From an uncultured virus (IMG/VR IMGVR_UViG_3300009183_000053) (lineage: Duplodnaviria > Heunggongvirae > Uroviricota > Caudoviricetes): 64,000 nucleotides of DNA. The stretch is taken from IMG/VR virus record IMGVR_UViG_3300009183_000053. One strand, written 5' to 3'. The notes below the pieces were generated by a model that was not told where the DNA came from, did not search any database, and was given only the letters and a program-made list of their open reading frames with translations. Below are positions 2,327 through 27,663 of this stretch, piece by piece. The stretch's first letter is position 1. Each line of letters begins with the position of its first letter. The translations under genes and the position numbers were made by a program.

Positions 2327-2332
2327 AATTTA

Positions 2333-3711: not shown

Positions 3712-3733
3712 TTAACACCTTCAAAAAAAGTAT

Positions 3734-4840
3734 TTATCTTATAATTTGGATCTCCTTTCCAGAAGTCCAAATTTCTAGTTCGGTTTTTAACCGTTTCTCA
3801 TTGTACAGAGTTTCATACCGATTACAAGCCTTATTTCGCCACCATTCAATCAAGTTTACCAGATTGTGTTTTTCATAGTTTTCACCAGGAATAAGCACGT
3901 CCGTCTTACAGTTTACATAGTCAACCATGTTTTTAAAGCCATAGTCACTGGTGTAATATCTTTTTTGCTCTGTCAACCCTTTTGCTTTCCCAATCGTTGC
4001 TATGAATGTATCCCCTTCAGGTGTACCTTTAAGTGCAGCTTTAGTGAGGGAAATAATCTTCATAGAGATTTTCAGTTTCTTACTAGAAGCAACATCTTCA
4101 ACCAAAGGTCCGACTTTATCTTGTACGAAATCACGTAGGTCAGAATAAGGTTTGCCGTGCATCATAGGAAGAAAATCAGAATCTGTCAGGCCTTTATATC
4201 TGATATATGGTTTCATACCATCATATTGCGATACAGTCTTTGAACTACCATACAAAGAAGTTGTTTCAAAGAGACACAGGTTCATTCCATACTTTACATT
4301 TACAATCTCACGTACTTCATGTGAAGTGCAGATTGCAGCCAACAGTTTACCACCAAGGTAATTATAACCAAATGGTTGTGCAGGTACAATAACAAAACCC
4401 ATCATTGCAGAATTATTGAATCGTTTACCCCACTCAGGTTTTTGTGTAAACACTTGACCAAGCATATCATTACGTGGCTTACAGTTGATTACAGGTGAAC
4501 CAAGACGGATGAATCCTACGTACTTTCCTGTATTGGTTTCACGCACTGCCAGTTTAACATTGCGGCCAACTGGCGGAATGTTTACATGAGATGAAGTGAT
4601 GTTCAATAGATTGGTCCAAGTTTCATTATCAATCTCGACAACCTCAAAATTCATATTTTTTGGATTCATTGTGAAGTCTTGAAACAACTCATCTTCAATC
4701 GGAAACAAAGGATTGGATGGCAATTCGGCCAAAGAATTCAACTTTTGGTCACGCATATACTCATCAATACGGTCAAAACTACCAAAGTAATCTTCAAATA
4801 CTTTGGCGCAATGAACTGCATCATTAAATTCTAATTTCAT
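3734..4840 (-). CDS. DUF4338/DruA-like protein (paralog 1)
   Basis: VPAQPFGYNYLGGKLLA and TTSLYG...SQYDG motifs shared with 26398..27663. Confidence 0.65.
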   Translation of the reverse strand: MKLEFNDAVHCAKVFEDYFGSFDRIDEYMRDQKLNSLAELPSNPLFPIEDELFQDFTMNPKNMNFEVVEIDNETWTNLLNITSSHVNIPPVGRNVKLAVRETNTGKYVGFIRLGSPVINCKPRNDMLGQVFTQKPEWGKRFNNSAMMGFVIVPAQPFGYNYLGGKLLAAICTSHEVREIVNVKYGMNLCLFETTSLYGSSKTVSQYDGMKPYIRYKGLTDSDFLPMMHGKPYSDLRDFVQDKVGPLVEDVASSKKLKISMKIISLTKAALKGTPEGDTFIATIGKAKGLTEQKRYYTSDYGFKNMVDYVNCKTDVLIPGENYEKHNLVNLIEWWRNKACNRYETLYNEKRLKTELEIWTSGKEIQIIR

Positions 4841-6231
4841 ACTTTAAATCCATCGAATGATTTCTTCTGTGTTTTCTCTCTGTTACCAAATGTGTTGAGT
4901 GGTTTATCTTGACCAGAATCTGTGATGCCATCTTGGCTAGACTGTTCAATATCATATAATCTCATTTTCGACCTATCAATACCTAGAGTGAATCGTTTGA
5001 AATGCGTTGGATCATTATAACGATTCTTCAATTGTTTTACCATAATCTGTCCCATTTCTTCTAGTTCTTCGGAAGAAATCAATGCAAACATCAAGTCTGC
5101 GGTTGCCGGCAAACCAAAAGACTCACTTGTGTCCTCAAGTCCGGGATCGGAAGAAGTAAATCCACTTCTAGTTGTTTGTGTCGCAGAAACAATAGGTACT
5201 CCGAACTCAACGGCAAGACCTCGCAACTCCTCGGCGATGGATTTAACGTAGGAATATGAGTTGACATTTGCTCCTGCTTTGATGCGAGAAGAACAACAAA
5301 TATTGAGGTAGTCAATGAAAATAATATCAGGAACAAAAGACTTTTTAAGATTAAGCTCGTTGAGTAAGGTACGAAAATGTATGCTGCTTGCAGACGCTGT
5401 TGGATACTCTTTAATGATAAGTTTACCCACAGTCTTTTCACGGAGTTTATTAATCTTTTTATCATACAAATCTTTTGGTAAACTTACAAGGTCATCAATC
5501 GTGACATTCAATAAGTTGGCATCAATACGTTCTGCAATCTTTTCTTCACTCATTTCCATTGTGATGTAAAGAACATTCTTGCCTTGTACCATACAGCCTG
5601 CAGCCACATGACACATGAACAAACTTTTTCCAACACCAGTTCCGGCAAGAGCTATATTAAGCGTCTTATTAGGCAAGCCACCTTTTGTGATTTTGTTAAA
5701 GAACTCTAAGTCAAAAGGGATTCGTTCTTCTTTACGATGGTAGAAATCATATCGTTCATCCGAGTTTTCAAGATAATCGTGGCCAACAGAATTGTCAAAA
5801 CTTATCGCTAAGGCATCTGATAGTATTTTGGGAATCGAACCTTTGTCATTGGTTTTGTCCTTGCCATCGAGGATTGAAATAGACCCCAATACAGCGTTAT
5901 AAATGGCCTTCTCTTGGCAAAACTGTTCGGTCTTGTCAACAAGCCATTGAACCTTGGATTCTTCACCTTTAGTTTTCTCAATCTCTTTTAGATAAGATTC
6001 ACACTTCTCCACTTCCTCATCTGAGAGATTTCGCCTTTCTTTGACGGCCAGTACAAGTGCTTCAACCGTTGGTGTAGAATTGTAAGTTTCTGTGAATGAT
6101 GCAATCTCATCATATAATGTTTTGTCGCTTCTGTCTGTAAAATATTCTGATTTTAGAAATGGTAAAACCTTGCGTAAATATTCTTCATTATAAATTAGAT
6201 TTTTTAGAATCGTCTGTTCCAGTTTCATCAA
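4837..6231 (-). CDS. gp41: Replicative DNA helicase (T4 gp41-like)
   Basis: Walker A AGTGVGKS, IFIDYLNIC, SATQTTR and ESFGLPATAD. Confidence 0.96.
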   Translation of the reverse strand: MMKLEQTILKNLIYNEEYLRKVLPFLKSEYFTDRSDKTLYDEIASFTETYNSTPTVEALVLAVKERRNLSDEEVEKCESYLKEIEKTKGEESKVQWLVDKTEQFCQEKAIYNAVLGSISILDGKDKTNDKGSIPKILSDALAISFDNSVGHDYLENSDERYDFYHRKEERIPFDLEFFNKITKGGLPNKTLNIALAGTGVGKSLFMCHVAAGCMVQGKNVLYITMEMSEEKIAERIDANLLNVTIDDLVSLPKDLYDKKINKLREKTVGKLIIKEYPTASASSIHFRTLLNELNLKKSFVPDIIFIDYLNICCSSRIKAGANVNSYSYVKSIAEELRGLAVEFGVPIVSATQTTRSGFTSSDPGLEDTSESFGLPATADLMFALISSEELEEMGQIMVKQLKNRYNDPTHFKRFTLGIDRSKMRLYDIEQSSQDGITDSGQDKPLNTFGNREKTQKKSFDGFKV

Positions 6232-6508
6232 TTACTTCCTGTTCCATGTTAGATGACATTATTTCCACCAATAAGTCACCAATGTAGTTTTTAAAGTCAT
6301 CATCTTTTTCCAGTTTGGCTGGCTTCTTTACAGGTGATTCTAACACATCGTAAGCAAAAAGTAAATAGGCCTGTTCGTTTTCTTCCTTAAACTTTACCTT
6401 ACCATATTTGAATATGGTATCTTTATAAGGACCTTCCAAAAATTTAATGTTGACTGCTGTTTTGTCATCCTTTGGATAGATGTAGCAGTAATCTATTCCC
6501 TCAATCAT
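6188..6508 (-). CDS. Hypothetical protein at the gp40 position
   Basis: 106 aa between uvsX and gp41. Confidence 0.65.
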   Translation of the reverse strand: MIEGIDYCYIYPKDDKTAVNIKFLEGPYKDTIFKYGKVKFKEENEQAYLLFAYDVLESPVKKPAKLEKDDDFKNYIGDLLVEIMSSNMEQEVIDETGTDDSKKSNL

Positions 6509-7575
6509 TATACACCATTCATGGTTGCAACATCAAATGTTTCATCAATATTGCTTGTCATAATTTCTCCGGATGCCACACGGTATTTGTTCTCAATGAA
6601 ATCACGGAAAGATTTCTGTTTCAGAATAGGCATCCAAAAGTCTTTGGTGTCGGTGTCCTTCTCACGGTAATTCTTTTCTTCAATCACACCATCTGTGTCA
6701 ACACGTTGATACCAACCATTCTTTGGTTTAACCACATGTTTGGACTCAATAGCAAGGTCAAGTAAACCAGACCAAGTGCTAATACCACCATCAAAAGATA
6801 CACTGACAGGTATTTTAGATTTTTCTTTGACATATCTAGATTTTTCCACGTTAATAATAAAATTGTAACCGGTAACTTCTGTACCATCTTTTTCTTGTTG
6901 ACGGCCGATAATAAAAATATTGTCAGCTGAATAATATGAACCTGTACCACCACCGACAATAGCTTTAGGGAACATACCAATTTCCATGTATGTGTGATTT
7001 ACAACAACCATTGGAATGTCTTTCAATGATAAGTGAGGTGTCACCATACGGAACAAACTCTTAACTTGTTTGGCTCGGGACATATCAGCAACTGATTTCT
7101 CCGCTAAGGCATCTTCAACCTCTTTCTTAGATGCTAAGTTACCAATTGAATCAATGACAATAATCAACTTATCACCACGTTCCAATTGTGTCAACTGTGC
7201 CATTATGTCGAATTTGAGTTGTTCAATATCTGTAAGAGGAGTATGGAGCACCCGCTCTGTGTCAATACCAAAGCTGTCAAAATAAGACTGCGGAGTACCA
7301 AACTCTGAATCATAGAATAGTAGTGCTGCATCGGGATATTTGTCCAAGTAAGATTTGGCCATCAACAAACTAAATGCAGTCTTAAAGTGTTTGGACGGAC
7401 CTGCCCACATTGTAAGACCTGGTGTCAGACCACCATCTAACTTACCAGAAAGTGCCACGTTAATAATTGGCACCGCTGTTGGAATCATATCCTTCGCATT
7501 GAAGAATTTTGATTTAGCTAAGATAGCAGAATCTTTAATACTACTATTTTTTTTAATTTTGTCTAATATACTCAT
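6508..7575 (-). CDS. uvsX: RecA-like recombinase UvsX
   Basis: WAGPSKHFKT, FYDSEFG and DSIGNLASKKE. Confidence 0.96.
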   Translation of the reverse strand: MSILDKIKKNSSIKDSAILAKSKFFNAKDMIPTAVPIINVALSGKLDGGLTPGLTMWAGPSKHFKTAFSLLMAKSYLDKYPDAALLFYDSEFGTPQSYFDSFGIDTERVLHTPLTDIEQLKFDIMAQLTQLERGDKLIIVIDSIGNLASKKEVEDALAEKSVADMSRAKQVKSLFRMVTPHLSLKDIPMVVVNHTYMEIGMFPKAIVGGGTGSYYSADNIFIIGRQQEKDGTEVTGYNFIINVEKSRYVKEKSKIPVSVSFDGGISTWSGLLDLAIESKHVVKPKNGWYQRVDTDGVIEEKNYREKDTDTKDFWMPILKQKSFRDFIENKYRVASGEIMTSNIDETFDVATMNGV

Positions 7576-7586
7576 TGTTTCATCCT

Positions 7587-8765
7587 TTAAAATTTACCAG
7601 CATCACGAATTTCTTTCTCTTTAAAAGAATACGGTTCATCATAATCATACTTAGGTTCCAATTTTTTCACAGGTTCTTCTATTGGTACATGATGTTCTTC
7701 ATACATAACAGAATTTCGTGCATTGTGGGTTTCAATTGTTACCTTTTCATGTGTGATTGGCGGTATGGTTTCACCAGTTATATCATCAATCACAATCATA
7801 TTATCTTTTTTAATTTGCAAAGTATCTTCTTTTGGTGCAACCATTGGTTTCAAATTCTCAAAGTGTTTGAATGGCTGTTTCAGGTATGCATAAGGATCAA
7901 CTGGTTCTTCAACATGTACAGTTTCAGGTACTACATTAACAACCTCTTGCTCAGCATGCTTGGCATCTTCATCCAATTTTCTTGCATTTACTTTAACTCG
8001 TTCGAAGAAGTCTTCAACATCTTCTTTTTGTTTGATTGACATGTTATATGCGATTAACAATAGAATTGCTAATGGATCAAATACAACAATAATCAATAGA
8101 ATAACAAGGCGTACTGCTTTGTCCATAATGTCAGTTGTTGCTTCACCATATGCCAGTGCAGCAATGTATTTGATTGGTCCTACATCCGCTTCAACCTTAC
8201 GGAGTTCCGTTGATATCGGTGCTCTTTCTTCATTGAGGGTTGCAATAGTTTTCTGTTCGGTCGAAATCTCAGATTGAAGGCGGATGCGTTCTTTCTGCTG
8301 TGTTTTTCGGACTGCAACAGCTTTATCCGCACCTTTTTCATCAGTACTGCGGCCCATAACTTGGTCCACAGCCTCATCCATTTGTCTAAGCGCCTTCCGG
8401 TTCGCATCAATATTTTCTTTTGATGTTCTGATTTTTTCGTCAATGATAGAAATCTTATCAACATACGGACCACTATCTGCTGAATGTTCTAAGTGTGCCT
8501 TTGATAAGAAACCAAATATACCCATTGAAGTAATCAACATTAAAATGATAACTGCTATCGACAAATATGATTTAATAAGAAAAGGACATTGTTTCCAATT
8601 ATTATACAACCACGATACTGTTACTAGTTTCGAAGCTTCAAGAACCGAACCCATAAAAATAATTGGCCAAAATGAACCAGGAAAAATTTGTGCTAAACCA
8701 ATAACTGAATAGTAGGCAGAAACACCAGATAAACCTAGTGCTGTAAGTAACGTTAAAAATATCAT
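7587..8765 (-). CDS. Membrane protein with coiled coil
   Basis: N-terminal hydrophobic helices, a coiled coil and an IIVVFDPLA transmembrane segment. Confidence 0.75.
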   Translation of the reverse strand: MIFLTLLTALGLSGVSAYYSVIGLAQIFPGSFWPIIFMGSVLEASKLVTVSWLYNNWKQCPFLIKSYLSIAVIILMLITSMGIFGFLSKAHLEHSADSGPYVDKISIIDEKIRTSKENIDANRKALRQMDEAVDQVMGRSTDEKGADKAVAVRKTQQKERIRLQSEISTEQKTIATLNEERAPISTELRKVEADVGPIKYIAALAYGEATTDIMDKAVRLVILLIIVVFDPLAILLLIAYNMSIKQKEDVEDFFERVKVNARKLDEDAKHAEQEVVNVVPETVHVEEPVDPYAYLKQPFKHFENLKPMVAPKEDTLQIKKDNMIVIDDITGETIPPITHEKVTIETHNARNSVMYEEHHVPIEEPVKKLEPKYDYDEPYSFKEKEIRDAGKF

Positions 8766-11317
8766 CCGAAAAAGTCCTCTAAAGAGTTAGTTTTTTCCGC
8801 AGACCACTTCATGCATTTTAAAATGACACTGATTGGTTCCAGAAATGCTTTGTCGAATTGTACATCATAATCAATGTAGTTGTCAAGCTCAAACTCTTTA
8901 GGTATTCTACCTGGAAAAGAAATCACATCATTCTTAAAATGATTTGGCATTCTCAAATAGGTAAATTTGAGTTTTTCACCTTCTTGTATGAGTGGGTACT
9001 TCTTAGTCAATCCCAATTGTTTTAGATGGTGGTTATATACGATTGCACCACGAACATGAATGGGTGTGCCTTTTTTGAACAACATTACTGGATCGGAATA
9101 AGTATTTAGCCCATTCAAACCCCGAGGAAAAGATATTTCTTCCGCTGGTAATGTTTTAAACTCTTTCTTAAACTCGGCAATAAAGTCTTGTACTTGTTGT
9201 TCAGTGCCAGTCATCATCAACTTAATGGCAGCCTTCATCTTCTCACGAATAGCAGATGGTGTGGATGATTTAATCATTTCCAAACCCATCACTTTCATGT
9301 GTGGTTCAGCATACTGTACACCTTCATTGTTATATACATTTAGAATATAACGTTTCTTGGCAGTCCATACACCTTTGTCACAAAGACCCTCACGCTTCAT
9401 CTGCATCTTTTGTGCATATGCATGAACATAATCAGCCAACTCTTGGTAAGATTTATCAATATGTGGTTGTAGTTTATCTTCACAAACACGATCCATAAAT
9501 TCAATAATCTTTTGTGCAGGCATTTTAACCACACCATCAACACCATAAACTTTATTTACCAAATCACCGAGGCGCAGGTAAATAGAATCAGTATCAGAAG
9601 CGATTACATAATCGTTATCTGTACCAAGAAGTTTATTCATGTATTGGTTTATTTTCGCTTCAATCCATTTGATGGAAAGCTGGCCTGCCGTAGTGACTCC
9701 CAAAGCCATGCGTAGGTCATAAAACCTAAAATACTGACTTCCCAAAGCACCGTAGGCAGAGTTAAGGGATACTTTCTTTGCGAGCTGGAGGTTGTTGTAT
9801 CTGGCAACTCGTTTGTCGATTTCATATTTTTTTCGTTCATCTTTTTCATTCTCATACTCCTGTTGCGCTTGCAACATCATCTTTTTAAATTTCTTGCGGT
9901 CATCATACATTTCGACCATCATCTTAGGTAAGAAACCTTGAATGTCGGTACGGAAGAATTGACCGTTTGGCGTGATTGTAACATCAACCAGTTCCGAAGT
10001 GTCAATTTGTTTCATTAACATTTTATCAACAGTAACACCTTGTGAAAGAACACCACGCATTTCATCAGTATAGTTTTCTGGTTCAATTAACGTTTCAGGT
10101 GAAATGTTGTACTGCATCATCAAGTGTGGATACAAACTGTTCAAGTCAAACGATGCAACCCAATTGTGTAATCCAATTTGTGGTTCTTTAACATATGCAC
10201 CTTCAAACGCAGAATCTTTCTCTTGTGTTTCTTTTGGTGGAACAATGATGCCTTTGCCTAACAAATATGAATACGTCAGTGAATCCCACATACGTGTCTG
10301 TGCAAATACATCTTCATAGTTACACTTGGTATCATACGCAAGAGTTAAGGCCAACTCAATCAACTTCAACTTGTCTTCTAGTTTAATAATCAATGCAACG
10401 TCTTTAATGTTGTATTCGATAAACTTTTGATAGTTCAGTCTATACAGTTGGTGTAAGTTCTCATATTCATCATATGAAATCTTGCCTTCACCAAGTTCCA
10501 CTTGTGCGATATTATCTAGTCGATAGGATTCTTGTGACTTACCACCTGGCGCATACCATTTGTATAACTCAATATAATCAAGTGATTCGATACCAACAAA
10601 ACTGTATGCTATCAACAAACGACCATTGATATTTGTTTTACGTTCACTGATATAATTCCATGGAGATAACATCTTAGCTTTATCTTCACCAAGAATCTTA
10701 CGAAAACGATTGACAAGATATGGTATATCAAAGAACTTGGTGTTCCAGCCAGTGATAACATCTGGATACATTCTGGACCAAAACTCAATGAATTTACTGC
10801 AAAGAGTGTATTCATCTTTACACTTCAGATAGGTTATATTGTCGGGATCATCATTACGAAAATCACCACAACCAAACACATAAGTGTGACCATTCAGAAA
10901 GGTCGTTGCAATTGCGGTGATAGGTTCGTTTGCAAGGTATGGATCAGGAAAACCATTTTCCGAACCGACCTCAATGTCGATAATTGCAACACTTACTTTA
11001 TCTTGTTCCCAATCAACCATTTCAGAATGTTGTTCTGCAATGAAAGCGTATTGATATCCTGTGTTACCATAGATTTTTGGAGCACCTGGAAGACCATCAT
11101 ATTGTTTCACATATTCTCTGGCTTCACGAATGCCATCAAATCGTTTTGGCACAAGGTCTAGGCCATCAAGTGATTTATGGGTACCTTTACCGTTACGGGC
11201 TGGAAGATACAATTGTGGTTCATAATCAATCTTCAGTTTGATTCTTTTACCATCTTTGACGCCACGATAAAGAATCTGGCCGCCAAGTGCCTGTACGTTT
11301 GTATAAAAAGTTGTCAT
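8762..11317 (-). CDS. gp43: Family B DNA polymerase
   Basis: DIEV exonuclease motif, SFDLNSLYPH, KVSLNSAYG, ASDTDS and KKRY. Uninterrupted. Confidence 0.98.
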   Translation of the reverse strand: MTTFYTNVQALGGQILYRGVKDGKRIKLKIDYEPQLYLPARNGKGTHKSLDGLDLVPKRFDGIREAREYVKQYDGLPGAPKIYGNTGYQYAFIAEQHSEMVDWEQDKVSVAIIDIEVGSENGFPDPYLANEPITAIATTFLNGHTYVFGCGDFRNDDPDNITYLKCKDEYTLCSKFIEFWSRMYPDVITGWNTKFFDIPYLVNRFRKILGEDKAKMLSPWNYISERKTNINGRLLIAYSFVGIESLDYIELYKWYAPGGKSQESYRLDNIAQVELGEGKISYDEYENLHQLYRLNYQKFIEYNIKDVALIIKLEDKLKLIELALTLAYDTKCNYEDVFAQTRMWDSLTYSYLLGKGIIVPPKETQEKDSAFEGAYVKEPQIGLHNWVASFDLNSLYPHLMMQYNISPETLIEPENYTDEMRGVLSQGVTVDKMLMKQIDTSELVDVTITPNGQFFRTDIQGFLPKMMVEMYDDRKKFKKMMLQAQQEYENEKDERKKYEIDKRVARYNNLQLAKKVSLNSAYGALGSQYFRFYDLRMALGVTTAGQLSIKWIEAKINQYMNKLLGTDNDYVIASDTDSIYLRLGDLVNKVYGVDGVVKMPAQKIIEFMDRVCEDKLQPHIDKSYQELADYVHAYAQKMQMKREGLCDKGVWTAKKRYILNVYNNEGVQYAEPHMKVMGLEMIKSSTPSAIREKMKAAIKLMMTGTEQQVQDFIAEFKKEFKTLPAEEISFPRGLNGLNTYSDPVMLFKKGTPIHVRGAIVYNHHLKQLGLTKKYPLIQEGEKLKFTYLRMPNHFKNDVISFPGRIPKEFELDNYIDYDVQFDKAFLEPISVILKCMKWSAEKTNSLEDFFG

Positions 11318-11646
11318 TAACCTGTAATGATTTGTTGTTGACCTGGAAGAATAATGCCTGTGCCGAAAATTTGGTCATAGTTTTTGACAAAATCTTCTGC
11401 TGGAACGTAGTAGTATACAATATGTTCACGTTTTAAGGCAATAGTAGAGTCTGATTTTTGTTCTGCATGGATTGGAAATGGCGCAAAACCTACGTTAGGT
11501 TGACCATCTTTACCACGTACAATGGCAATTCCTAATGGATTCTTAATCACCATTTCATTTTCATTAATGAAAATATTTTCATTCTCCGTTTCAACTTCAC
11601 CAATAAGTTCTTCACCAGTTACTAATTTCATTGCATATATTTTCAT
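11317..11646 (-). CDS. Small hypothetical protein (possible Sm-like fold)
   Basis: KLVTGEELIG start, typical of small phage proteins near gp43. Confidence 0.7.
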   Translation of the reverse strand: MKIYAMKLVTGEELIGEVETENENIFINENEMVIKNPLGIAIVRGKDGQPNVGFAPFPIHAEQKSDSTIALKREHIVYYYVPAEDFVKNYDQIFGTGIILPGQQQIITG

Positions 11647-11690
11647 GTTAATCCTATCCTAAATAATTATATAGTGTGACCTGAACGTAG

Positions 11691-11719
11691 ATTATATCAT
11701 TTTTTTGTTATAATGTCAA
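11691..11719 (-). promoter_or_regulatory. Sigma70-type promoter for the gp43-uvsX-gp41 run
   Basis: TTGACA-N17-TATAAT. Confidence 0.8.
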
Positions 11720-11743
11720 GTAAAAAAAATGGTATAAAAAGAA

Positions 11744-12520
11744 ATGGATCCATTCACACTCTTTGCCCTCGCAAATGGTGCGGTTTCGGCAGTCAAAGCC
11801 GGATGTAAACTATACAAAGATATTAAAGGTGCAGCTGGGGAAGTCAAGGACGTCCTCAAGGATCTTGACGACCAGTTCAAAAAGCTCCATCCACCAGAAA
11901 AACCTGCAAGTGTAGCACAAAGAAATGCCTTCATTACGGAAAAAAATCGTGTAATTGAACTAAACAAAAAGGGTGGAGAAACTACCAACATCTACCAAGA
12001 GATTGGTGAACACCTAGGCACATACTATGATAACTTTTATAAATGTATGGCTGTTTTTGAAGAAGAAGAAAAAATTGCTAAGACACAAGTTTATACCGGA
12101 GATGCATCATTAGGTAAACGTGCCTTACAACGTGTACTCATGCGTAAACAACTTGAACAAATGTCAGTTGATTTACGTGAGTTGATGATTTATCAAAGTC
12201 CTCCAGAGCTCGGTGCTTTATATACCGAAGTCGAAGAAATGATGAAAGAGATGGGTAAAGAACAAAAGGTTCTTCTTATCAAACAAATGCAACAACAAGC
12301 GATATTAGATAAACGCCGTTTAGCACGAATGAGAAAACTCAGAGATGAATTTGCTACAGGCGTTGCTATTGTGATTATAATTTTTGTTATGGCTGGTGTG
12401 TTTATGTGGGTAGCATATGATAGACAACAGAAATATCCACAATATGGTGATGGGTTATTTCCTAAATCAGAAGAAAAAAGAAGGGAAGAATCAATGCCTA
12501 AAGTTTACGTAGGAAGATGA
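11744..12520 (+). CDS. Hypothetical protein with C-terminal transmembrane helix
   Basis: 258 aa. CTAAATA late-type promoter at about 11659. Confidence 0.75.
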   Translation: MDPFTLFALANGAVSAVKAGCKLYKDIKGAAGEVKDVLKDLDDQFKKLHPPEKPASVAQRNAFITEKNRVIELNKKGGETTNIYQEIGEHLGTYYDNFYKCMAVFEEEEKIAKTQVYTGDASLGKRALQRVLMRKQLEQMSVDLRELMIYQSPPELGALYTEVEEMMKEMGKEQKVLLIKQMQQQAILDKRRLARMRKLRDEFATGVAIVIIIFVMAGVFMWVAYDRQQKYPQYGDGLFPKSEEKRREESMPKVYVGR

Positions 12521-12804
12521 ATAAAAAACTCTTATTTACGTTGTTGACCACAAGTGTAACACTGATGGTCACTCATCCAACCATCAATATAAACTTGATG
12601 CCGGATGCTGTCATATACACCAAAGCGACTAACAATAATGATTATTGTAAATTGACAAGAAGTTTTACTGAAAAAAGTGGACCGAAAGATTTACAAGTCT
12701 GTGAATATAAATGTTCAAATGTAAAACGAAATGGTTCTACATTGATACATACAACTTCAGTAAACAATTCACGTTCTTGCAAAGATAAAATTGAATCGCC
12801 GTGA
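12517..12804 (+). CDS. Small exported Cys-containing protein
   Basis: ATGA overlap with the previous gene, signal-peptide-like N-terminus and 4 Cys. Confidence 0.65.
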   Translation: MNKKLLFTLLTTSVTLMVTHPTININLMPDAVIYTKATNNNDYCKLTRSFTEKSGPKDLQVCEYKCSNVKRNGSTLIHTTSVNNSRSCKDKIESP

Positions 12805-12818
12805 TGTATAAAGATTAA

Positions 12819-12891
12819 TGGTTGCGGGTCACGGAGTCGAACCGGAACTGAGGATTATGAGCCCACTGTGATACCATTTCACCAACCCGCT
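12819..12891 (-). tRNA. tRNA-Met(CAT), probably initiator
   Basis: Unpaired position 1/72, CTCATAA loop, GTTCGA and CCA end. Confidence 0.85.
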
Positions 12892-12894
12892 ATA

Positions 12895-13122
12895 TTAGTT
12901 GTCGTATAAACCTAATCTTTGATTTTCTGCCACCATGGCATCTAAAGCCTTTTGGCGCATACGATTTTCTTCTAAAATTCTATCAAATTCTTCTTGTTCG
13001 TATTTGTCTTCTTGTATTTCTTTTGGTGATTTTTTTCTAAAAATATTGTCGTAGTTATTACCAAATGTTTTCTGTGAAACACTAAACGGCCTTGGACTAG
13101 AACCTTTACCACCATCAGACAT
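12895..13122 (-). CDS. Hypothetical protein
   Basis: 75-aa ORF directly after GroES. Confidence 0.65.
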   Translation of the reverse strand: MSDGGKGSSPRPFSVSQKTFGNNYDNIFRKKSPKEIQEDKYEQEEFDRILEENRMRQKALDAMVAENQRLGLYDN

Positions 13123-13124
13123 GT

Positions 13125-13370
13125 TTACTCTCCGTAGATGTAAGCTATGTCTTCAATCTTCACCACGAAATAATCTTGCACTGCTGCGGCCTTACCCCAG
13201 TCTGGTTGAACCACATCACCGACCTGGACTTCTGTAACATCCGGACCAACTGCAAGTACTCTTGCTTTATCTGGATCTTCGGAATGTTTTAGGATGATGC
13301 CTGAAGCGGTCTCTTTGACATTCTCAATACGTTCAATCAATACTTTATCATGCAAGGGTTTAATATTCAT
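13125..13370 (-). CDS. groES: GroES-like co-chaperonin
   Basis: MNIKPLHDKVLI...TASGIIL...LAVGP. Start moved to ATG 13370, which follows a GAGGA RBS. Confidence 0.9.
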   Translation of the reverse strand: MNIKPLHDKVLIERIENVKETASGIILKHSEDPDKARVLAVGPDVTEVQVGDVVQPDWGKAAAVQDYFVVKIEDIAYIYGE

Positions 13371-13383
13371 AGTGTCCTCAAAA

Positions 13384-13450
13384 TGGAGCGGTCTACTGCT
13401 TTGCTCAGTTAACACAAGGGGGTACCTTGTATCGTACTATTACAAACCGC
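13384..13450 (-). ncRNA. Atypical 67-nt tRNA-Gly-like RNA lacking a D-stem
   Basis: 7-bp acceptor GCGGTTT/AGACCGC, U73-CCA end and anticodon-like hairpin ACAAG-GTACCCC-CTTGT. Confidence 0.7.
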
Positions 13451-13456
13451 ATTAAA

Positions 13457-13530
13457 TGGAGCGGGATGAGAGAATCGAACTCTCAACCGGAGATTGGAAA
13501 TCTACTGTTTTACCACTAAACTAATCCCGC
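13457..13530 (-). tRNA. tRNA-Gly(TCC)
   Basis: Cloverleaf with TTTCCAA loop and TCCA end. Confidence 0.92.
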
Positions 13531-13552
13531 ATAAAATCTGTTGTAGTTAACT

Positions 13553-13627
13553 TGGAGCGGGTAGTGAGAATCGAACTCACAACTAAACCTTGGCAAGGTC
13601 TTGTGTTACCACTAGCACCATACCCGC
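13553..13627 (-). tRNA. tRNA-Gly(GCC)
   Basis: Cloverleaf with TTGCCAA loop and TCCA end. Confidence 0.92.
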
Positions 13628-13638
13628 ATCATGTGTGT

Positions 13639-13667
13639 ATTATATAGGCTTCTTATTAAGAAGTCAA
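13639..13667 (-). promoter_or_regulatory. Internal sigma70 promoter for the Gly tRNAs and groES
   Basis: TTGACT-N17-TATAAT. Confidence 0.75.
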
Positions 13668-13677
13668 GCATTATTTT

Positions 13678-13760
13678 TGGTACGAGTAACCGGAGTCGAA
13701 CCGGTACGCCGAGGCGGCAGATTTTAAGTCTGATGGGTCTACCAATTCCCCCATACTCGC
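13678..13760 (-). tRNA. tRNA-Leu(TAA)
   Basis: CTTAAAA loop, variable arm and ACCA end. Confidence 0.92.
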
Positions 13761-13761
13761 A

Positions 13762-14340
13762 TCACATAGCACGGTCGTTTCCACTTTTGAAACCGACCTC
13801 ACCACCTTCTTCTTTAATTCGTTTGATAACATCTTCAAAAAGAATCGGTCTAAAATCTGTTTGTTCAACACAAACACAATGGTATCTGTTATCAATACCC
13901 ATTGGTTTACCATTGAACCCACGAATCTGAACACGATTGGAATGTAAATGGCCATGGATGTTTACACCGAAACGACCAAGACTTTCCGTATGAATTGGAA
14001 TATGTGACAGGATCATTCCATTCATTACATGATAAGCACGTAGTTCACGAAAGTGTTGTCTGTATTCCTCATCACGGAAGATATCATGGTTACCACGAAT
14101 AAGAACCTTATCACCGTTAAGTCTATATAGAGTATTCATTGCTTTACGATTAATAACAACATCACCAAGATGGTAAACTTTATCGTTTGGTCTGACTGTT
14201 TCGTTCCAACGCTTAATCATTTCTTCATCCATTTCATCGGGATTATCCCATGGCCGAAGTTTTGTTCCGTCATCACGAAGAAATCTACACACACCAGCGT
14301 GACCAAAGTGTGTGTCACTTACTAAAAATACTGCTGGCAT
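13762..14340 (-). CDS. Calcineurin-like metallophosphoesterase
   Basis: SDTHFGH, HLGD, GNHD and HGHLH. Confidence 0.9.
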   Translation of the reverse strand: MPAVFLVSDTHFGHAGVCRFLRDDGTKLRPWDNPDEMDEEMIKRWNETVRPNDKVYHLGDVVINRKAMNTLYRLNGDKVLIRGNHDIFRDEEYRQHFRELRAYHVMNGMILSHIPIHTESLGRFGVNIHGHLHSNRVQIRGFNGKPMGIDNRYHCVCVEQTDFRPILFEDVIKRIKEEGGEVGFKSGNDRAM

Positions 14341-14357
14341 AATAAACTCCTAAAAAA

Positions 14358-14432
14358 TGGTCCGGCGTGAGAGAATCGAACTCCCATTAGAAGGGTAGAA
14401 GCCTACTGTATTATCCATTATACTAACGCCAG
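14358..14432 (-). tRNA. tRNA-Arg(TCT)
   Basis: Cloverleaf with TCT anticodon and CCA end. Confidence 0.88.
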
Positions 14433-14437
14433 AAATT

Positions 14438-14514
14438 TGGTGCCCCAGGAGAGACTCGAACTCTCAAAATTTGGCTTCTAAGACCAACACGTATACCAAT
14501 TCCGTCACCGGGGC
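14438..14514 (-). tRNA. tRNA-Leu(TAG), short variable loop
   Basis: Leu-type D arm, CTTAGAA loop and A73. Confidence 0.88.
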
Positions 14515-14527
14515 AATAAATACTCAT

Positions 14528-14752
14528 ATGATACCAACTTCAAAAAGACCTACAGTAGAAATGTTTTACGGATTGTATGCACAACAAACATATGAACCTA
14601 ATGGTTACTACTGTGTTGATTCTGAATTTGTTCCATCATATGATACTAAGATAAAAACTTTTGAAGATGATGAATTATATATCACACAAGAAAAAGAATT
14701 TATCTTAACAACATTAAAACAAGTTGGTGCTCCTACTAAGAATCGAACTTAG
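14528..14752 (+). CDS. Possible small antisense ORF within the tRNA array
   Basis: 74 codons filling a 210-nt gap, with AATAAATA ending 5 nt before the ATG. Confidence 0.45.
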   Translation: MIPTSKRPTVEMFYGLYAQQTYEPNGYYCVDSEFVPSYDTKIKTFEDDELYITQEKEFILTTLKQVGAPTKNRT

Positions 14753-14798
14753 GATACATCCTTACCATGGATGTGGTATGCCATTTACCTATAAGAGC
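14725..14798 (-). tRNA. tRNA-Thr(GGT)
   Basis: CATCC-ATGGTAA-GGATG anticodon arm. Confidence 0.9.
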
Positions 14799-14799
14799 A

Positions 14800-14876
14800 T
14801 GGTACCCAAGGTGGGATTCGAGCCCACATAACCTTGATTTTGAATCAAGTACGTATACCTATTCCGTCACTTGGGC
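14800..14876 (-). tRNA. tRNA-Leu(CAA), short variable loop
   Basis: CTTGA-TTCAAAA-TCAAG arm and T-loop CTCGAAT. Confidence 0.86.
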
Positions 14877-14881
14877 ATATT

Positions 14882-14957
14882 TGGTGCTGCCTAGAGGAAT
14901 CGAACCTCTTTCAATGGTTCTTCAGACCACCGCTATGACCACATCAGCTAAAGCAGC
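14882..14957 (-). tRNA. tRNA-Phe(GAA)
   Basis: CTGAAGA loop and ACCA end. Confidence 0.9.
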
Positions 14958-14961
14958 ATGT

Positions 14962-15036
14962 TGGTACCCCGTGACAGTTTCGAACTGCCGACCTTCGCCG
15001 TGTAAAAGCACTGCTCTACCACTGAGCTAACGGGGC
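14962..15036 (-). tRNA. tRNA-Val(TAC)
   Basis: TTTACAC loop and canonical D/T arms. Confidence 0.9.
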
Positions 15037-15041
15037 ATATT

Positions 15042-15116
15042 TGGGGAGAAATACCAGGATCGAACTGGTGATAACGGAATCACAACCCGTGGTTTTACCA
15101 CTAAACTAATTTCTCC
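15042..15116 (-). tRNA. tRNA-His(GTG)
   Basis: Encoded G-1:C73 pair and TTGTGAT loop. Confidence 0.9.
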
Positions 15117-15119
15117 ATA

Positions 15120-15605
15120 TTATTGAAGTGCTTCTTGGTCTGCCAAGATTCTTTTCAATCTATCAGCACAAAAACTTGCAGCAGGTGCATCTGGTTTAAC
15201 CATTGGTGTCATATTACATGTACCTTTGATATAACCAATCGCTTGCTGAACAACACATGAACTACCATGAATATCATCTTTATTTAAATCAAGATGAACT
15301 TCAACATGATAATCTTCCAACACTTCTGCTAATGATTGGAACAATTCTGAAACTTTATAAACTTCAGTCATCAACCTCATAGCAGGTTTACTTTTCTTAT
15401 GGTCGTAATCCAATTCACGGTGAACATATCCGAAAATCTTACAACCATGTCGGCCATCAATATGAACTACAACTGCTAGAGCATAGTCAGCATACCAAAC
15501 ACCATTTACCCTGATTCTTTCAGAGTCGGCACCAAGATAAACCTTGGTATCAGGACCTTGATTTGCAAGGTATTGTCTGACTTCTTCTATATTGAAATTT
15601 TTCAT
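15120..15605 (-). CDS. RNase H-like YkuK (DUF458) family protein
   Basis: VYLGADS, RLMTEV, EVHLDLN, KPDAPAAS and AD motifs. Start moved to 15605. Confidence 0.8.
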   Translation of the reverse strand: MKNFNIEEVRQYLANQGPDTKVYLGADSERIRVNGVWYADYALAVVVHIDGRHGCKIFGYVHRELDYDHKKSKPAMRLMTEVYKVSELFQSLAEVLEDYHVEVHLDLNKDDIHGSSCVVQQAIGYIKGTCNMTPMVKPDAPAASFCADRLKRILADQEALQ

Positions 15606-15626
15606 ATTAATCACCTTTTTTAAAAT

Positions 15627-15700
15627 TGGCATCCCGCTAGGGACTCGAACCCCAACCAACGGTTTTGGAGACCGCTATGCTGCCATTACACCAGCGAGAA
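15627..15700 (-). tRNA. tRNA-Trp(CCA)
   Basis: CTCCAAA loop and G73. Confidence 0.88.
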
Positions 15701-15703
15701 ATT

Positions 15704-15778
15704 TGGTACCGAGAAAGAGAATTGAACTCTTGGCCAACGCCTTATCAAGACGCTGCTCTACCACTGAGCTACCTCGGC
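15704..15778 (-). tRNA. tRNA-Ile(GAT)
   Basis: TTGATAA loop and A73. Confidence 0.85.
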
Positions 15779-15782
15779 ATTT

Positions 15783-15857
15783 TGGAGGGCGATGAGAGAA
15801 TCAAACTCCCACTTCAAGGTTCGTAGCCTTGTGTAATATTCATTTTACTAATCGCCC
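15783..15857 (-). tRNA. tRNA-Arg(ACG)
   Basis: CAAGG-CTACGAA-CCTTG arm. Confidence 0.87.
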
Positions 15858-15863
15858 ATAATT

Positions 15864-15938
15864 TGGTGGTTCAGGTGAGAATCGAACTCACACAACGCAC
15901 CGTATGAAGATGCTGCACTGCCACTATGCTACTGAACC
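15864..15938 (-). tRNA. tRNA(CAT), probably elongator Met
   Basis: GCATC-TTCATAC-GGTGC arm. Confidence 0.8.
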
Positions 15939-15942
15939 TAAT

Positions 15943-16017
15943 TGGTGGAGGCCGAGGAAATCGAATCCTTCTAGTCACGATCCTTGCAAGGGAACGCCGC
16001 AGCCCACTGCTGCCCCC
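15943..16017 (-). tRNA. Atypical tRNA-Ala(TGC)
   Basis: G3:U70 pair, A73, CTTGCAA loop and a 4-nt D-loop. Confidence 0.8.
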
Positions 16018-16186: not shown

Positions 16187-16395
16187 TAAGTGCTCTGCAT
16201 CCTGCGGCGGTAATTATATCATAGTTGTAAACATGTCCTTTTTCAAGGGGAATACACCCATAACCTCCACCCGCTTCCCGACCAGGATCGTTAACGCATT
16301 GCCAGCGGCCTTTCGGTAAAAAGACTACCACCCTTGAGAGTCACCTCACTTCTTATCCTGCGGGTCACAGTATCCGCTAACCAAGCGGAACGTAT
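16187..16395 (-). ncRNA. Candidate structured ncRNA 1 in the tRNA array
   Basis: GC-rich spacer with several helices and no ORF in the track. Confidence 0.6.
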
Positions 16396-16934: not shown

Positions 16935-16937
16935 AAA

Positions 16938-17126
16938 TTAGGATAAGCTACTTGTTTCCACACAAGCCCTTAATTGAGAAGTTACTCTGTCCATCCCTTT
17001 TATTCTAATGTCTGTGTGCAGAGGGAACTGCCTATCAGAGCCTGAGATTTCTCTCGCTAACGGTTTTCTGCCACCGGATCTCTATCGCTAATCAAACGCT
17101 ACTTTAACGGAAGTAGTAACGGGATT
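16938..17126 (-). ncRNA. Candidate structured ncRNA 2 in the tRNA array
   Basis: Several hairpins including a GAAA tetraloop. Confidence 0.55.
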
Positions 17127-17219
17127 TGGTGGAGGCAGTTGGAGTCGAACCAACATTGTTTACCACGGGGGAACGGATTTACAGTCCGCTGCAGAACACG
17201 CCATATCTACAATGCCTCC
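17127..17219 (-). tRNA. tRNA-Tyr(GTA)
   Basis: CTGTAAA loop and long variable arm. Confidence 0.88.
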
Positions 17220-17291
17220 ATATAGAAACACACTCACCCGAATGGACTTATCCTGAGTTCCGCCTGCTGTCGGAAGTGTGTTTTTATATGG
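17218..17291 (-). repeat. Spacer stem-loop element, copy A
   Basis: CCATATAAAAACACACT-N40-AGTGTGTTTCTATATGG. Confidence 0.85.
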
Positions 17292-17363
17292 TAGGGGTAC
17301 AGAGAATCGAACTCTGATTAATAGGTTAAAAGCCTACTACTTTAGCCGTTAAGTTATACCCCC
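17289..17363 (-). tRNA. tRNA-Lys(TTT)
   Basis: CTTTTAA loop. Confidence 0.9.
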
Positions 17364-17368
17364 ATAAC

Positions 17369-17495
17369 TACCATTTGTTTTGCTGACGCACTATTTGCTA
17401 TGCTCAACGGATTTAGCTGCAGCATTACCGTTTATACACATAGTTAGTTAGAGTTGACGTTTACTCAAGCGCTTACGTCAGCAAAACAAATGGTA
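17369..17495. repeat. Perfect 20-bp inverted repeat enclosing 87 nt
   Basis: TACCATTTGTTTTGCTGACG (17369-17388) and CGTCAGCAAAACAAATGGTA (17476-17495). Confidence 0.9.
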
Positions 17496-17565
17496 CTCCG
17501 TACCAGAATCGAACTGGTCTTTCCGCCTTGAAAGGGCAGCGTCCTAACCGATAGACGAACGGAGC
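17491..17565 (-). tRNA. tRNA-Glu(TTC)
   Basis: TTTCAA-containing anticodon loop and CCA end. Confidence 0.9.
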
Positions 17566-17580
17566 ATTAACTACAACAAA

Positions 17581-17674
17581 TTTTTAAAGAACGTTTGATT
17601 GATTTCTCAATTCATAGATGAAGTATAACACAACCATGAATCATTGTCAACCAGACTGTTGTATTCCTACAACA
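17581..17674 (-). promoter_or_regulatory. Sigma70 promoter with upstream palindrome, boxB-like hairpin and boxA
   Basis: TTGACA(17645-50)-N17-TATACT, TTGA-GAAA-TCAA and GTTCTTTAAAAA(17581-92). Confidence 0.8.
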
Positions 17675-17678
17675 TGTT

Positions 17679-17754
17679 TGGAGTAGGTGACAGGAATCGA
17701 ACCTGCATGTAACAGATTTGCAATCTGCTCCCTAGCCTTTCGGGTCACACCTAC
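17679..17754 (-). tRNA. tRNA-Cys(GCA)
   Basis: TTGCAAA loop and U73. Confidence 0.9.
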
Positions 17755-17760
17755 ATGTTT

Positions 17761-17848
17761 TGGCAGAAGGTATCGGATTCGAACCGATGCGCCGCTTTCG
17801 CAACGACAGTTTAGCAAACTGCTCCCTTAACCGCTCGGGCAACCTTCT
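17761..17848 (-). tRNA. tRNA-Ser(GCT)
   Basis: TTGCTAA loop, long variable arm and G73. Confidence 0.9.
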
Positions 17849-17853
17849 ATGTT

Positions 17854-17945
17854 TGGCGGAAGACGGAGGAGTCGAACCCCATCCCATTTCTGAGAACCTG
17901 GTTTTCAAGGCCAGTCGCAGGACCAACCCCGCTGCATCATCTTCC
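17854..17945 (-). tRNA. tRNA-Ser(TGA)
   Basis: CTTGAAA loop, long variable arm and G73. Confidence 0.9.
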
Positions 17946-18018
17946 ATATAGAAACACACTAAACGAGGCGACCCGTTTCGAACCAGTTCCTGCTTATCTC
18001 TAATGTGTTTTTATATGG
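17944..18018 (-). repeat. Spacer stem-loop element, copy B
   Basis: CCATATAAAAACACATTA-N39-TAGTGTGTTTCTATATGG. Confidence 0.85.
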
Positions 18019-18089
18019 CTGGGGTACCTTGAATCGAACAAGGACCTACGGATTCAAAGTCCGCAGCACTACCACTATGCTATACCCCA
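18016..18089 (-). tRNA. tRNA-Gln(TTG)
   Basis: U1:A72 pair and CTTTGAA loop. Confidence 0.9.
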
Positions 18090-18104: not shown

Positions 18105-18176
18105 TTTTTAAAGAACAGTGTGTATTGTATACCAGATTCGATGACCTGGCAACCACTGTGTTGTATTGAAACAACA
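18105..18176 (-). promoter_or_regulatory. Sigma70 promoter with upstream palindrome and boxA
   Basis: TTGCCA(18147-52)-N17-TACAAT and GTTCTTTAAAAA(18105-16). Confidence 0.75.
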
Positions 18177-18177
18177 A

Positions 18178-18212
18178 ACAAAAAACCCTAGATTTTTTAG
18201 GTCTAGGGTCTT
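18178..18212 (-). terminator. Intrinsic terminator (putative attenuator)
   Basis: ACCCTAGA-loop-TCTAGGGT followed by TTTTTGTTTG. Confidence 0.85.
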
Positions 18213-18242
18213 GTGTTTGAAGTCTTTTTTAGAACTTATGTA

Positions 18243-26397: not shown

Positions 26398-27663
26398 TTA
26401 TCTGCCAACTTGTGGCAAATATTTGGTCTTGGTTTCTTCCCAAGACAAGTATATCAAGTCATCATAGAACAATGATTCATAAGATACATTATTCTTTTTC
26501 TTCAACATTGATATACGACCTTTGGCATATTTGGTTTTCCAAATTTGCACCAAGGCTTCTTCACTGGTATCAAATGATTTGACCAGTTGTTCATCACCAA
26601 TTTCTTTCCTAAGATATTCATTGGTGTTGTTGTATAGAGGAGAGAAGTAAATTCCCCTCTGATGTTCGGTACGGATAAGTTCTTTTGGAATACCTAACTT
26701 ACCATACGCAAAATTTAGTGTACGATTTTTATGGTCACGTTTCAAAGGAAGACCTTTTAGATTCTTGGCTTCCCACCATTCAAAATATTTTCGTGTATAG
26801 TTTTCTTTTACCCAGTTATAAATCAACGCTCTAGTTTTTCTGGATGGTTCAAAGGCAACCGACCCACTGGAGAAACCCATTTTGTTCCAGTGATCCAGAC
26901 CATCGTACTGAGATAAACCACCAGACTTAGTATTGCCATAGAGAGAAGTAGTAGTGACGCCAACGAGAACATCATCATATTGTCTTTTCCAATCTTTTTG
27001 TACTGTATCAGCAAGACACAATAGTGCCAACAACTTACCACCCATGTAATTGAAACCAAGTGGTTGTAACGGAACAATTGTAGAACCAATGGCAGTGTGA
27101 TTAATCATACCTTGTTGAGTCTTAACATCTCTAGGCCAACCGATTGCGGTGTCTCTTGGAGTCAAGTCCAAGAAGTCGGATGATATACACATAACACCAA
27201 GATACTTATCGGTGTTTTCATCAACCACGGTGTAATAAAGATTACGACCAATGTTAGAGTTGTTCTTCATTGTAGAAGAAAATGTACGTACTGTATTCCA
27301 AGTTTCTGCCAAAGGTCCATTTGATAGTACTAGTCTTGGTTTTAATTTTTCATAATCATCTGGACCTTCTGGCATCCAAAAGTTTTTCTTAACCTTTTCA
27401 ACCAGTTTCTTTTGTGTAACATCTATCAATTGTATATCTTCACCAAACAAGGTGCCGATGTTTCTGGTAGGATACTTCTCATGTACTTCTAACCATTTTT
27501 GATATAAGGTATACTCACGTACATCCATCTGTGAGGCATACGTAAGGTCCTTAATCAATATTTCTTTCAGCTGCTCGGTATCAATGTGTTCAAAACGTTC
27601 AGGTTCATTTAGTACCTGCCATTTTTCCCACTGAGCATCAACATAATCTATAGGTGTGGCCAT
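26398..27663 (-). CDS. DUF4338/DruA-like protein (paralog 2)
   Basis: VPLQPLGFNYMGGKLLA and TTSLYG...SQYDG. Confidence 0.65.
   Translation of the reverse strand: MATPIDYVDAQWEKWQVLNEPERFEHIDTEQLKEILIKDLTYASQMDVREYTLYQKWLEVHEKYPTRNIGTLFGEDIQLIDVTQKKLVEKVKKNFWMPEGPDDYEKLKPRLVLSNGPLAETWNTVRTFSSTMKNNSNIGRNLYYTVVDENTDKYLGVMCISSDFLDLTPRDTAIGWPRDVKTQQGMINHTAIGSTIVPLQPLGFNYMGGKLLALLCLADTVQKDWKRQYDDVLVGVTTTSLYGNTKSGGLSQYDGLDHWNKMGFSSGSVAFEPSRKTRALIYNWVKENYTRKYFEWWEAKNLKGLPLKRDHKNRTLNFAYGKLGIPKELIRTEHQRGIYFSPLYNNTNEYLRKEIGDEQLVKSFDTSEEALVQIWKTKYAKGRISMLKKKNNVSYESLFYDDLIYLSWEETKTKYLPQVGR

Follow-up and report, generated by a model that had tools for sequence, protein, structure and literature searches.

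What occupies the spacers between transfer RNA (tRNA) genes of an uncultured phage, and does it do more than separate them? The question is raised by the viral record IMGVR_UViG_3300009183_000053, a 119,431-base virus contig (66% complete) whose first 64 kb, a stretch of 64,000 nucleotides, were analysed and are referred to here as the window. Two spacers of its tRNA cluster, one between tRNA-Lys and tRNA-Tyr and the other between tRNA-Gln and a Ser-type tRNA, each consist of a long stem that encloses a variable insert; the units are termed cassettes A and B, and the inserts payloads (Table 1). At the level of sequence comparison, the stem, its covariation, its match to an RNase III half-site, the conservation of payload families and the exchange of payloads between slots and phages are established. 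An exchangeable cassette is proposed, from which RNase III would release a likely stable RNA of 62-63 nt that might well act as a decoy for a host RNA-binding protein; this proposal as a whole is held with slightly less than even confidence, both the cut and the decoy role being inferred.

The two cassettes

The inverted repeats lie where the initial annotation had placed them, at 17218-17234/17275-17291 (arms of 17 nt, 40 nt between) and 17944-17961/18001-18018 (arms of 18 nt, 39 nt between). The A-C mismatch said to be common to both copies is found at stem pair 8, and the U-G wobbles of copy B are seen on the tRNA strand. A generic stem finder detected only A and B in the 119-kb contig, and gave 0, 3 and 0 matches in three shuffles of 971 kb of loci.

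Which strand is represented in the RNA? The minus strand folds well (z -3.96 for A and -4.11 for B, with 2/200 and 0/200 shuffles folding as well), but so does the plus strand (z -6.87 and -4.62), and thus a single genome cannot fix the RNA strand; homologs do. Stem pair 16 is U-G on the tRNA strand in 209 of 330 unique homologous elements, as the earlier suggestion of a minus-strand RNA would have it. The 330 elements come from loci whose orientation was given by tRNAs (of 316 loci, 18 were left out), and the stem finder behind the pair-16 count allowed G-U but not A-C in the upper seven pairs.

These wobbles bear on a reading at the DNA level, whereby the inverted repeats of a mobile or recombination cassette, similar to a miniature inverted repeat transposable element or an attC site, are read by a recombinase. 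Terminal inverted repeats, a variable interior and the occurrence of filled and empty sites have parallels there. The G-U pairs are on the tRNA strand, however, the arms change by compensation, the lower half of the repeat is not constrained, and no integrase or transposase was present among the ~101 proteins scanned of this 66% complete contig, all of which makes the reading highly improbable.

The stem was also said to pair the CCA of the upstream tRNA with the first bases of the next. In both window copies it does: the stems start with the CCA of tRNA-Lys and tRNA-Gln and end in the first GG of tRNA-Tyr (from 17219) and of the Ser-type tRNA. As a requirement across elements the pairing fails, as 184 of the 330 begin at a tRNA CCA, 113 of these at that of tRNA-Lys(UUU), and 78 end in the GG of the next tRNA. 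The motifs AGCAGG, GGAACT, GATAAG and CGGGT, listed as shared by the two loops, fared similarly. All four are in both loops, but only AGYAGG persists in both families, where it was fixed by the search patterns; GATAAG is in 1/15 A variants and CGGGT in 2/11 B variants. The two loops share eight five-mers, a number attained by 13 of 3081 family pairs. The placement of A and B in one family was considered and rejected, the global alignment being unremarkable (583/3081 family pairs). Thus, of the scaffold-plus-loop RNA first envisaged, the conserved scaffold, the variable but constrained insert, the tRNA strand and a likely release hold, but the loop does not vary freely: each copy is a member of its own conserved family.

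Proposed processing by RNase III

What is the stem for? The upper 10 bp of the 5' arm match, at six of seven specified positions and in both copies, the right half of the Escherichia coli RNase III consensus given in the available part of PMC4357697. The A-C mismatch adjoins the predicted cut. Stems anchored by their payloads offer a broader view: 41 unique ones were obtained from 70 of 71 loci, one locus at a contig edge being dropped and three that are out of register through indels being kept. Proximal-box position 2 is A-U in 41/41 and position 3 in 38/41, no pair is formed next to the predicted cut in 23/41, and the distal box has U-A in 39/41, followed by C-G in 21, U-G in 15 and U-A in 5. 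According to the portion of PMC1540722 available, UA/UG is the optimal distal box, G-C at proximal-box 2 is inhibitory and blocks binding, a U-C pair stands beside the cut in a well-cut substrate, one set of boxes suffices, and a helix of at least 11 bp is required between the distal box and the cut. The 17-bp covarying stems have that helix length, with 10 bp from cut to distal box and more pairs above.

Comparison with established RNase III stems, i.e. the R1.1 substrate and the leader-trailer helices of rRNA, reveals a similar half-site score (6/7, also obtained for the E. coli 16S leader-trailer helix), the UA/UG type of distal box and a mismatch next to the cut. The Paraburkholderia 23S helix has 7/10 letters in common with the upper arm of copy A, in the same orientation. 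As in pre-rRNA, the RNA within the stem is looped out, and boxA-like motifs precede both cassette units. The cassette differs from these stems in having A-U at proximal-box 1 and in being a reusable module around hundreds of unrelated 30-120-nt inserts, known here from sequence. No RNase III gene was found in the phage's own contig or in five carrier records, which implies the host enzyme.

The fixed stem would accordingly be one RNase III half-site, at which the host enzyme would cut a folded small RNA out of the tRNA precursor. After one staggered cut, a 4-nt trailer would remain on the upstream tRNA and a 3-nt leader, left to RNase P, on the downstream tRNA; a clamp of ~10 bp with a 2-nt overhang would hold the payload. 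A clamp of this length and overhang should resist exonucleases. That RNase III releases a payload RNA appears quite probable.

Payload families and their exchange

How varied are the payloads? Pooled scans over hundreds of viral contigs yielded 433 distinct payloads in 213 single-linkage clusters; a rough Chao1 estimate is ~460. The inserts are 29-123 nt long (median 51) with a GC content of 49%. Loci with the exact stem and a 40-60-nt gap numbered 122 of an estimated 260 IMG/VR stretches; with a relaxed stem, 121 of ~150 were collected for longer inserts and 122 of ~710 in metagenome contigs. Cassettes also occur in tandem, and one jumbo-phage cluster has about nine similar stems.

Individual families are conserved. 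When the payload cores alone served as the query, 34 loci were detected for A and 37 for B, all within a long stem whose lower half varies with compensation. In a scan that fixed only the top of the stem and six payload letters, 22 of 24 loci hold the whole A core, and the two changes preserve pairing. Covariation exceeds that in 500/500 shuffles on 4/5 measures for family A, where every two-sided change is located in the outer stem, and on 5/5 for family B, whose tip hairpin covaries. A compensatory pair inside the payload is present in 15 of 19 families with at least four members. Among the 19 larger families, invariant columns make up 254/440 (58%) of unpaired positions vs 384/633 (61%) of paired ones.

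The same payloads are found in different places. Payload A follows Lys, Gln, Asn or no tRNA, and B follows Lys, Gln, Ala, Glu, Tyr or none. A near-identical relative (L070) carries B and has an empty Lys-Tyr spacer of 8 nt. The Lys-Met slot holds 22 payload clusters, and contigs from lake RNA libraries show the same Lys and Tyr tRNAs joined to other payloads. Payloads might move by recombination via the shared stems and tRNA ends. Two arrangements can be added as observations. At five loci (the L161 group) a B cassette is directly upstream of a gene that resembles T4 dsbA by eye, with no tRNA within 1.5 kb. At two others (L127 and L152, 332-796) a GOLLD RNA scoring 197 bits precedes a payload A cassette by ~700 nt within the tRNA cluster of a phage.

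Where do the carriers belong? Many are lake phages, and they include phages of 350-380 kb, with capsid proteins 30-37% identical to that of the phage described here. A match to payload A was detected in one GTDB contig (contig 58 of a Planktophila metagenome-assembled genome, 1478 bases; locus L315), a dense tRNA array with two cassettes. This is probably a misbinned phage fragment; the stem pattern was present in 0/100 other genomes of that phylum. No cassette match was found in phage DLP6, four chance-like AT-rich matches were found in Melnitz, and none of the listed matches to cultured phages (30 of 1353) is a cassette. A loose match in the jumbo phage L351 was set aside, being inside a gene and without the long stem.

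Permuted tmRNA genes

In a jumbo phage, the cassette forms the intervening segment of a permuted transfer-messenger RNA (tmRNA) gene; payload A occupies this position at eight loci. A targeted scan detected 56 loci, 54 with a cassette between the acceptor CCA and the coding piece; the scan fixed the acceptor end and part of the stem, hence it selects for the cassette and provides no frequency among phage tmRNAs. There are 32 distinct payloads in this slot, in 25 clusters, 10 of which are also found in other slots. All 20 loci tested match the Rfam permuted-tmRNA model, and most match the betaproteobacterial one too, a hint as to possible hosts. According to the accessible part of PMC11915505, the intervening segment is missing from mature tmRNA, so a cassette in this slot must be excised. 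Only stem pairs 8-17, the upper 10 bp, are common to tmRNA and tRNA slots. The register is the same, with the predicted cut 0-1 nt after the CCA.

The two-piece tmRNA segment (Rfam RF04321, RF01850) is thus alike in having the same cassette, payload A included, between a CCA end and a GG start, and unlike in that the window copies sit between ordinary tRNAs. The parts of PMC11915505 and PMC9004378 available make no mention of a conserved stem or an exchangeable RNA there.

Does the cassette act where it lies? A processing switch in cis can be envisaged, where the RNase III stem sets the order of, or acts as a gate for, the maturation of the adjacent tRNA, tmRNA or mRNA, the payload senses a ligand or protein and so tunes the cut, and the fragment cut out is waste. 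In 184/330 elements the upstream CCA is masked by the stem (that of tRNA-Lys(UUU) in 113), the cassette fills a tmRNA segment that needs removal, and one B cassette immediately precedes a protein gene and has no tRNA close by. Yet a sensor should track its neighbour, and the same payload is found behind different tRNAs and in tmRNA. One slot accepts 22 clusters, cassettes stand in tandem, and the near-identical relative does with an empty slot; these properties render a cis switch rather unlikely.

Likeness of payloads to known RNAs

Can the payloads be recognized? A closed T-arm is found in 17/202 families vs 0.2 in mononucleotide shuffles (~80-fold), and the T-loop motif in 17/164 families vs 0.9 in dinucleotide shuffles. 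One cassette (L021) aligns to the whole YrlA model, T-arm before D-arm, with 29.6 bits (cut-off 69) and an E value of 4.8e-5, in a 121-base search with a cassette chosen by eye. Taken together, the T-arm families and this alignment indicate, at the sequence level, that part of the library mimics the tRNA elbow.

YrlA and other bacterial Y RNAs (RF02553; PMC4201824, from the part available) are alike in that a stem closes a tRNA-mimic domain, with the T-arm before the D-arm, and in being phage-borne. They are unlike the cassettes in that the tRNA-like domain is absent from payloads A and B and the L021 score is below the cut-off. True YrlA is, in the accessible text of that paper, encoded next to the gene for Ro60 (TROVE), and this gene was found in 0/5 carrier records (four complete, one a twin of this phage), the record of L021 itself being outside the search.

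No Rfam family covers the stem, and for A or B none was found at E values up to 5 apart from a generic miRNA hairpin (E 0.13). Nor did the matches listed for 20 + 20 + 20 further loci contain one for a payload. A match of locus L231 to the Dictyostelium class I RNA (38.6 bits) was discarded, as it is an AT-rich spacer with no cassette. Mimicry of rRNA by payload B, i.e. of the 23S peptidyl-transferase strands, was likewise tried and rejected: the two-block score of 13.5 is within the null range of 12.5-14.5.

Might the payloads pair with other RNAs? Antisense or guide RNAs would have their conserved blocks pair with host RNAs as split guides, and A and B each do have two invariant blocks around a variable hairpin. 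But the two blocks are paired with one another, a pairing preserved in two rare variants of A. The longest match elsewhere in the phage's own contig is 12 nt (E 0.37), 7-11-mers in common with E. coli rRNA, sense or antisense, are not in excess among the 164 families, hence no excess complementarity is seen, and the T-arm and YrlA-like payloads are structural mimics. Guides are therefore improbable. Small ribozymes, or small-molecule aptamers that act as signal sponges, are very improbable: several payloads have pseudoknot or multi-way folds by eye, but A and B are simple bulged hairpins and no ribozyme or riboswitch model was among the matches listed.

The GGA motifs of the loops were originally thought to bind CsrA/RsmA. 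Sponges of the CsrB/RsmY type present a number of conserved GGA motifs in the loops of hairpins. The tip of window copy A does include a GGA, and B has an invariant AGGA, but that of B is predicted to be paired, and 8/15 A variants are without ANGGA/AGGA (7/15 keep it). GGA is not enriched, being present in 99/164 families vs 108 in shuffles, and in 11 predicted hairpin loops vs 14-22. The motif hence does not bear out the proposal, and a CsrA/RsmA sponge is scarcely credible.

Possible functions

If RNAs are released, a role in trans as decoys is rather probable, though it is inferred. The likely stable 62-63-nt RNA would serve to decoy an RNA-binding protein of the host, and a repertoire so wide and quick to change would reflect selection to mimic many host RNA ligands, e.g. 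those of defence nucleases or tRNA-binding proteins. Protein-binding decoys fit best because unpaired bases are conserved, the folds are short, the diversity is wide and slots turn over fast. On a broader and more tentative view, which is possible but should be taken with reserve, lake T4-like and jumbo phages may hold a plug-in library of several hundred natural RNA aptamers, with tRNA clusters and tmRNA genes as expression platforms and an RNase III clamp that releases and stabilizes them, swapped so as to neutralize the defence or translation-control proteins of the current host, as the equivalent in RNA of the anti-defence protein repertoire.

Several points weigh against decoys released by RNase III. 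The cut and the released RNA are predicted from sequence features, and the binding partner is hypothetical. The half-site match is modest by itself (permutation p 0.02-0.06), and the score is an insensitive test, as it gives only 4/7 for the E. coli 23S and both Paraburkholderia helices. The preferred G-C at proximal-box 1 is seen in 1 of the 41 anchored stems (A-U in 35, which include both window copies, and G-U in 3), and a G-C beside the cut, which suppresses E. coli cleavage, is present in 48/330 elements. Payload A is uncovered in 4/4 lake RNA runs, although these are assembled contigs and silent on expression, and B could not be resolved in them. About 90% of families, A and B included, resemble nothing known; no payload reached the Rfam gathering score, and no CRISPR-repeat or type III antitoxin model was among the matches listed for the window and ~60 loci. 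Single payloads fold barely better than shuffles (mean z -0.47, 10/164 below -2), and the cluster counts, which come from single-linkage BLAST, may over-split the families.

Could the payloads be near-neutral passengers? Bacterial 23S rRNA contains intervening sequences that are excised by RNase III, and by analogy anything might be tolerated inside a removable stem and be spread by recombination. The singletons (132 of the 213 clusters), presence or absence between relatives and the weak folding of single sequences are in keeping with this. On the other hand, cores are invariant while stems and tips change with compensation, T-arms are ~80-fold in excess over mononucleotide shuffles, and payload A turns up repeatedly in distant phages, in tRNA slots as well as tmRNA slots. 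Passengers are thus quite improbable.

Decoys have precedents. Pseudo-ToxI of phage PhiTE and the Racr anti-CRISPRs (PMC13670838, as far as its available part goes) are similar in the proposed mimicry of a host RNA ligand by small phage RNAs. They differ in that they copy a recognizable host repeat, whereas the cassette RNAs share a processing stem, and no model of such a repeat is among the matches listed for them.

The tRNA clusters of T4 and T5 reportedly contain stable non-tRNA RNAs that are co-transcribed with the phage tRNAs and are of unknown function; there are said to be one or two fixed RNAs per phage, in contrast to an exchangeable library of cassettes.

Stems of this type are familiar from RNA processing, unlike the exchangeable library of RNAs. 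In searches of the open full-text literature, judged by titles and the starts of abstracts, no description of the cassette was found, although the csRNA catalogue of PMC10690425 may contain single payload families. No described system was found where a single invariant processing stem serves hundreds of small RNAs that are unrelated to one another, are each conserved and pass between slots and between lineages of phages. Few RNA decoys of phages are known, and if the proposal is correct, the class would be enlarged many times. The old question of what non-tRNA RNAs do in phage tRNA clusters also becomes testable: the ends are predicted to the nucleotide, each RNA is 60-70 nt long, and the whole library can be synthesized and screened. 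Should the payloads be passive, there would still be a new processing module common to tRNA clusters and split tmRNA genes.

Genomic setting

The source is a T4-like phage, as judged from its replication, portal, terminase, sheath and capsid genes. Among cultured phages, the closest capsid is that of Methylophilales phage Melnitz (65% identity), and a complete record of 179,754 bases (G006) has an identical capsid and carries both cassettes. ARAGORN predicts 26 tRNAs, every one on the minus strand. Features of the cassette units are listed in Table 1.

Table 1. Positions of the cassettes and adjacent features in the window
Feature	Position	Strand	Remarks
Cassette A	17218..17291	-	17-bp stem around 40-nt payload; between tRNA-Lys(UUU) and tRNA-Tyr
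5' arm of A	17275..17291	-	Starts with tRNA-Lys CCA; predicted RNase III cut 17285/17284, from consensus in available part of PMC4357697
Payload A	17235..17274	-	Near-invariant core: 4-bp helix, 5x3 internal loop, 4-bp helix; variable 10-16-nt tip
3' arm of A	17218..17234	-	Ends in first GG of tRNA-Tyr; predicted cut 17223/17222, leaving 3-nt tRNA leader
Predicted released RNA A	17223..17284	-	62 nt, 2-nt 3' overhang
Cassette B	17944..18018	-	17-bp stem (extends to ~20 bp) around 41-nt payload; between tRNA-Gln(UUG) and Ser-type tRNA
Payload B	17961..18001	-	Two conserved blocks form bulged helix; covarying variable hairpin as cap
Predicted released RNA B	17949..18011	-	63 nt; putative cuts 18012/18011 and 17949/17948
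Sister hairpin, Glu-Lys spacer	17369..17495	-	Perfect 20-bp CCA-to-TGG stem that differs in sequence and encloses 87 nt; z -7.3; same anatomy, membership uncertain
tRNA-Lys(UUU)	17289..17363	-	ARAGORN; upstream of A; commonest upstream cassette partner (113/184)
tRNA-Tyr(GUA)	17127..17219	-	ARAGORN; downstream of A
tRNA-Gln(UUG)	18016..18089	-	ARAGORN; upstream of B
Likely tRNA-Ser(UGA)	17854..17945	-	Missed by default ARAGORN; weak Rfam tRNA-Sec match 17858-17945; relatives called Ser(tga)
Sigma-70-like promoter	18124..18152	-	10/12; precedes Gln-B-Ser unit
boxA-like motif	18105..18116	-	Follows promoter 18124..18152; resembles rRNA leader motif in L349, L535
Sigma-70-like promoter	17622..17650	-	11/12; precedes Glu-Lys-A-Tyr unit
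Second boxA-like motif	17581..17592	-	Follows promoter 17622..17650

At both cassette units a promoter is followed by a boxA-like motif, an arrangement as in rRNA operons, and a long hairpin is located at 18185-18219, between two promoters and upstream of the Gln unit. The sister hairpin has homologs in 20 stored loci; other stems that follow Glu enclose >200 nt.

Two other non-tRNA spacers are of interest. The Tyr-Asp spacer (16935-17126, minus strand, 192 nt) has the highest summed contig depth in four lake RNA runs: the bin at 17056-17146 has a depth of 470 to 40,230 vs mostly <250 in tRNA bins, although depth, being summed over all similar contigs, is an unreliable measure here. BLAST matches to this spacer are present in 41 stored loci, ~30 of them near full length at 77-100%, with no Rfam match. 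It is likely an abundant, undescribed non-coding RNA. The Asn-Thr spacer (16250-16395, minus strand) is the second that is deeply covered (134 to 15,992 in the bin at 16237-16327), has matches in 23 stored loci and none in Rfam, and is followed by a promoter-like site at 16246-16218.

Elsewhere in the cluster, an Ala(UGC) tRNA with an unusual D-arm (15941-16017, minus strand) was missed by default ARAGORN and found at a relaxed threshold. An RNase H-like protein (Pfam PF04308) is encoded within the tRNA cluster at 15120-15605 on the minus strand; as a possible phage-borne processing enzyme it was considered and rejected, the gene being present in 2/5 carrier records and in 1 of the 4 complete ones. 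Two minus-strand genes, at 3734-4840 and 26398-27663, carry domains similar to DruA of the Druantia system (PF14236; E 2.7e-9 and 3.2e-19), in a phage of the lytic type.

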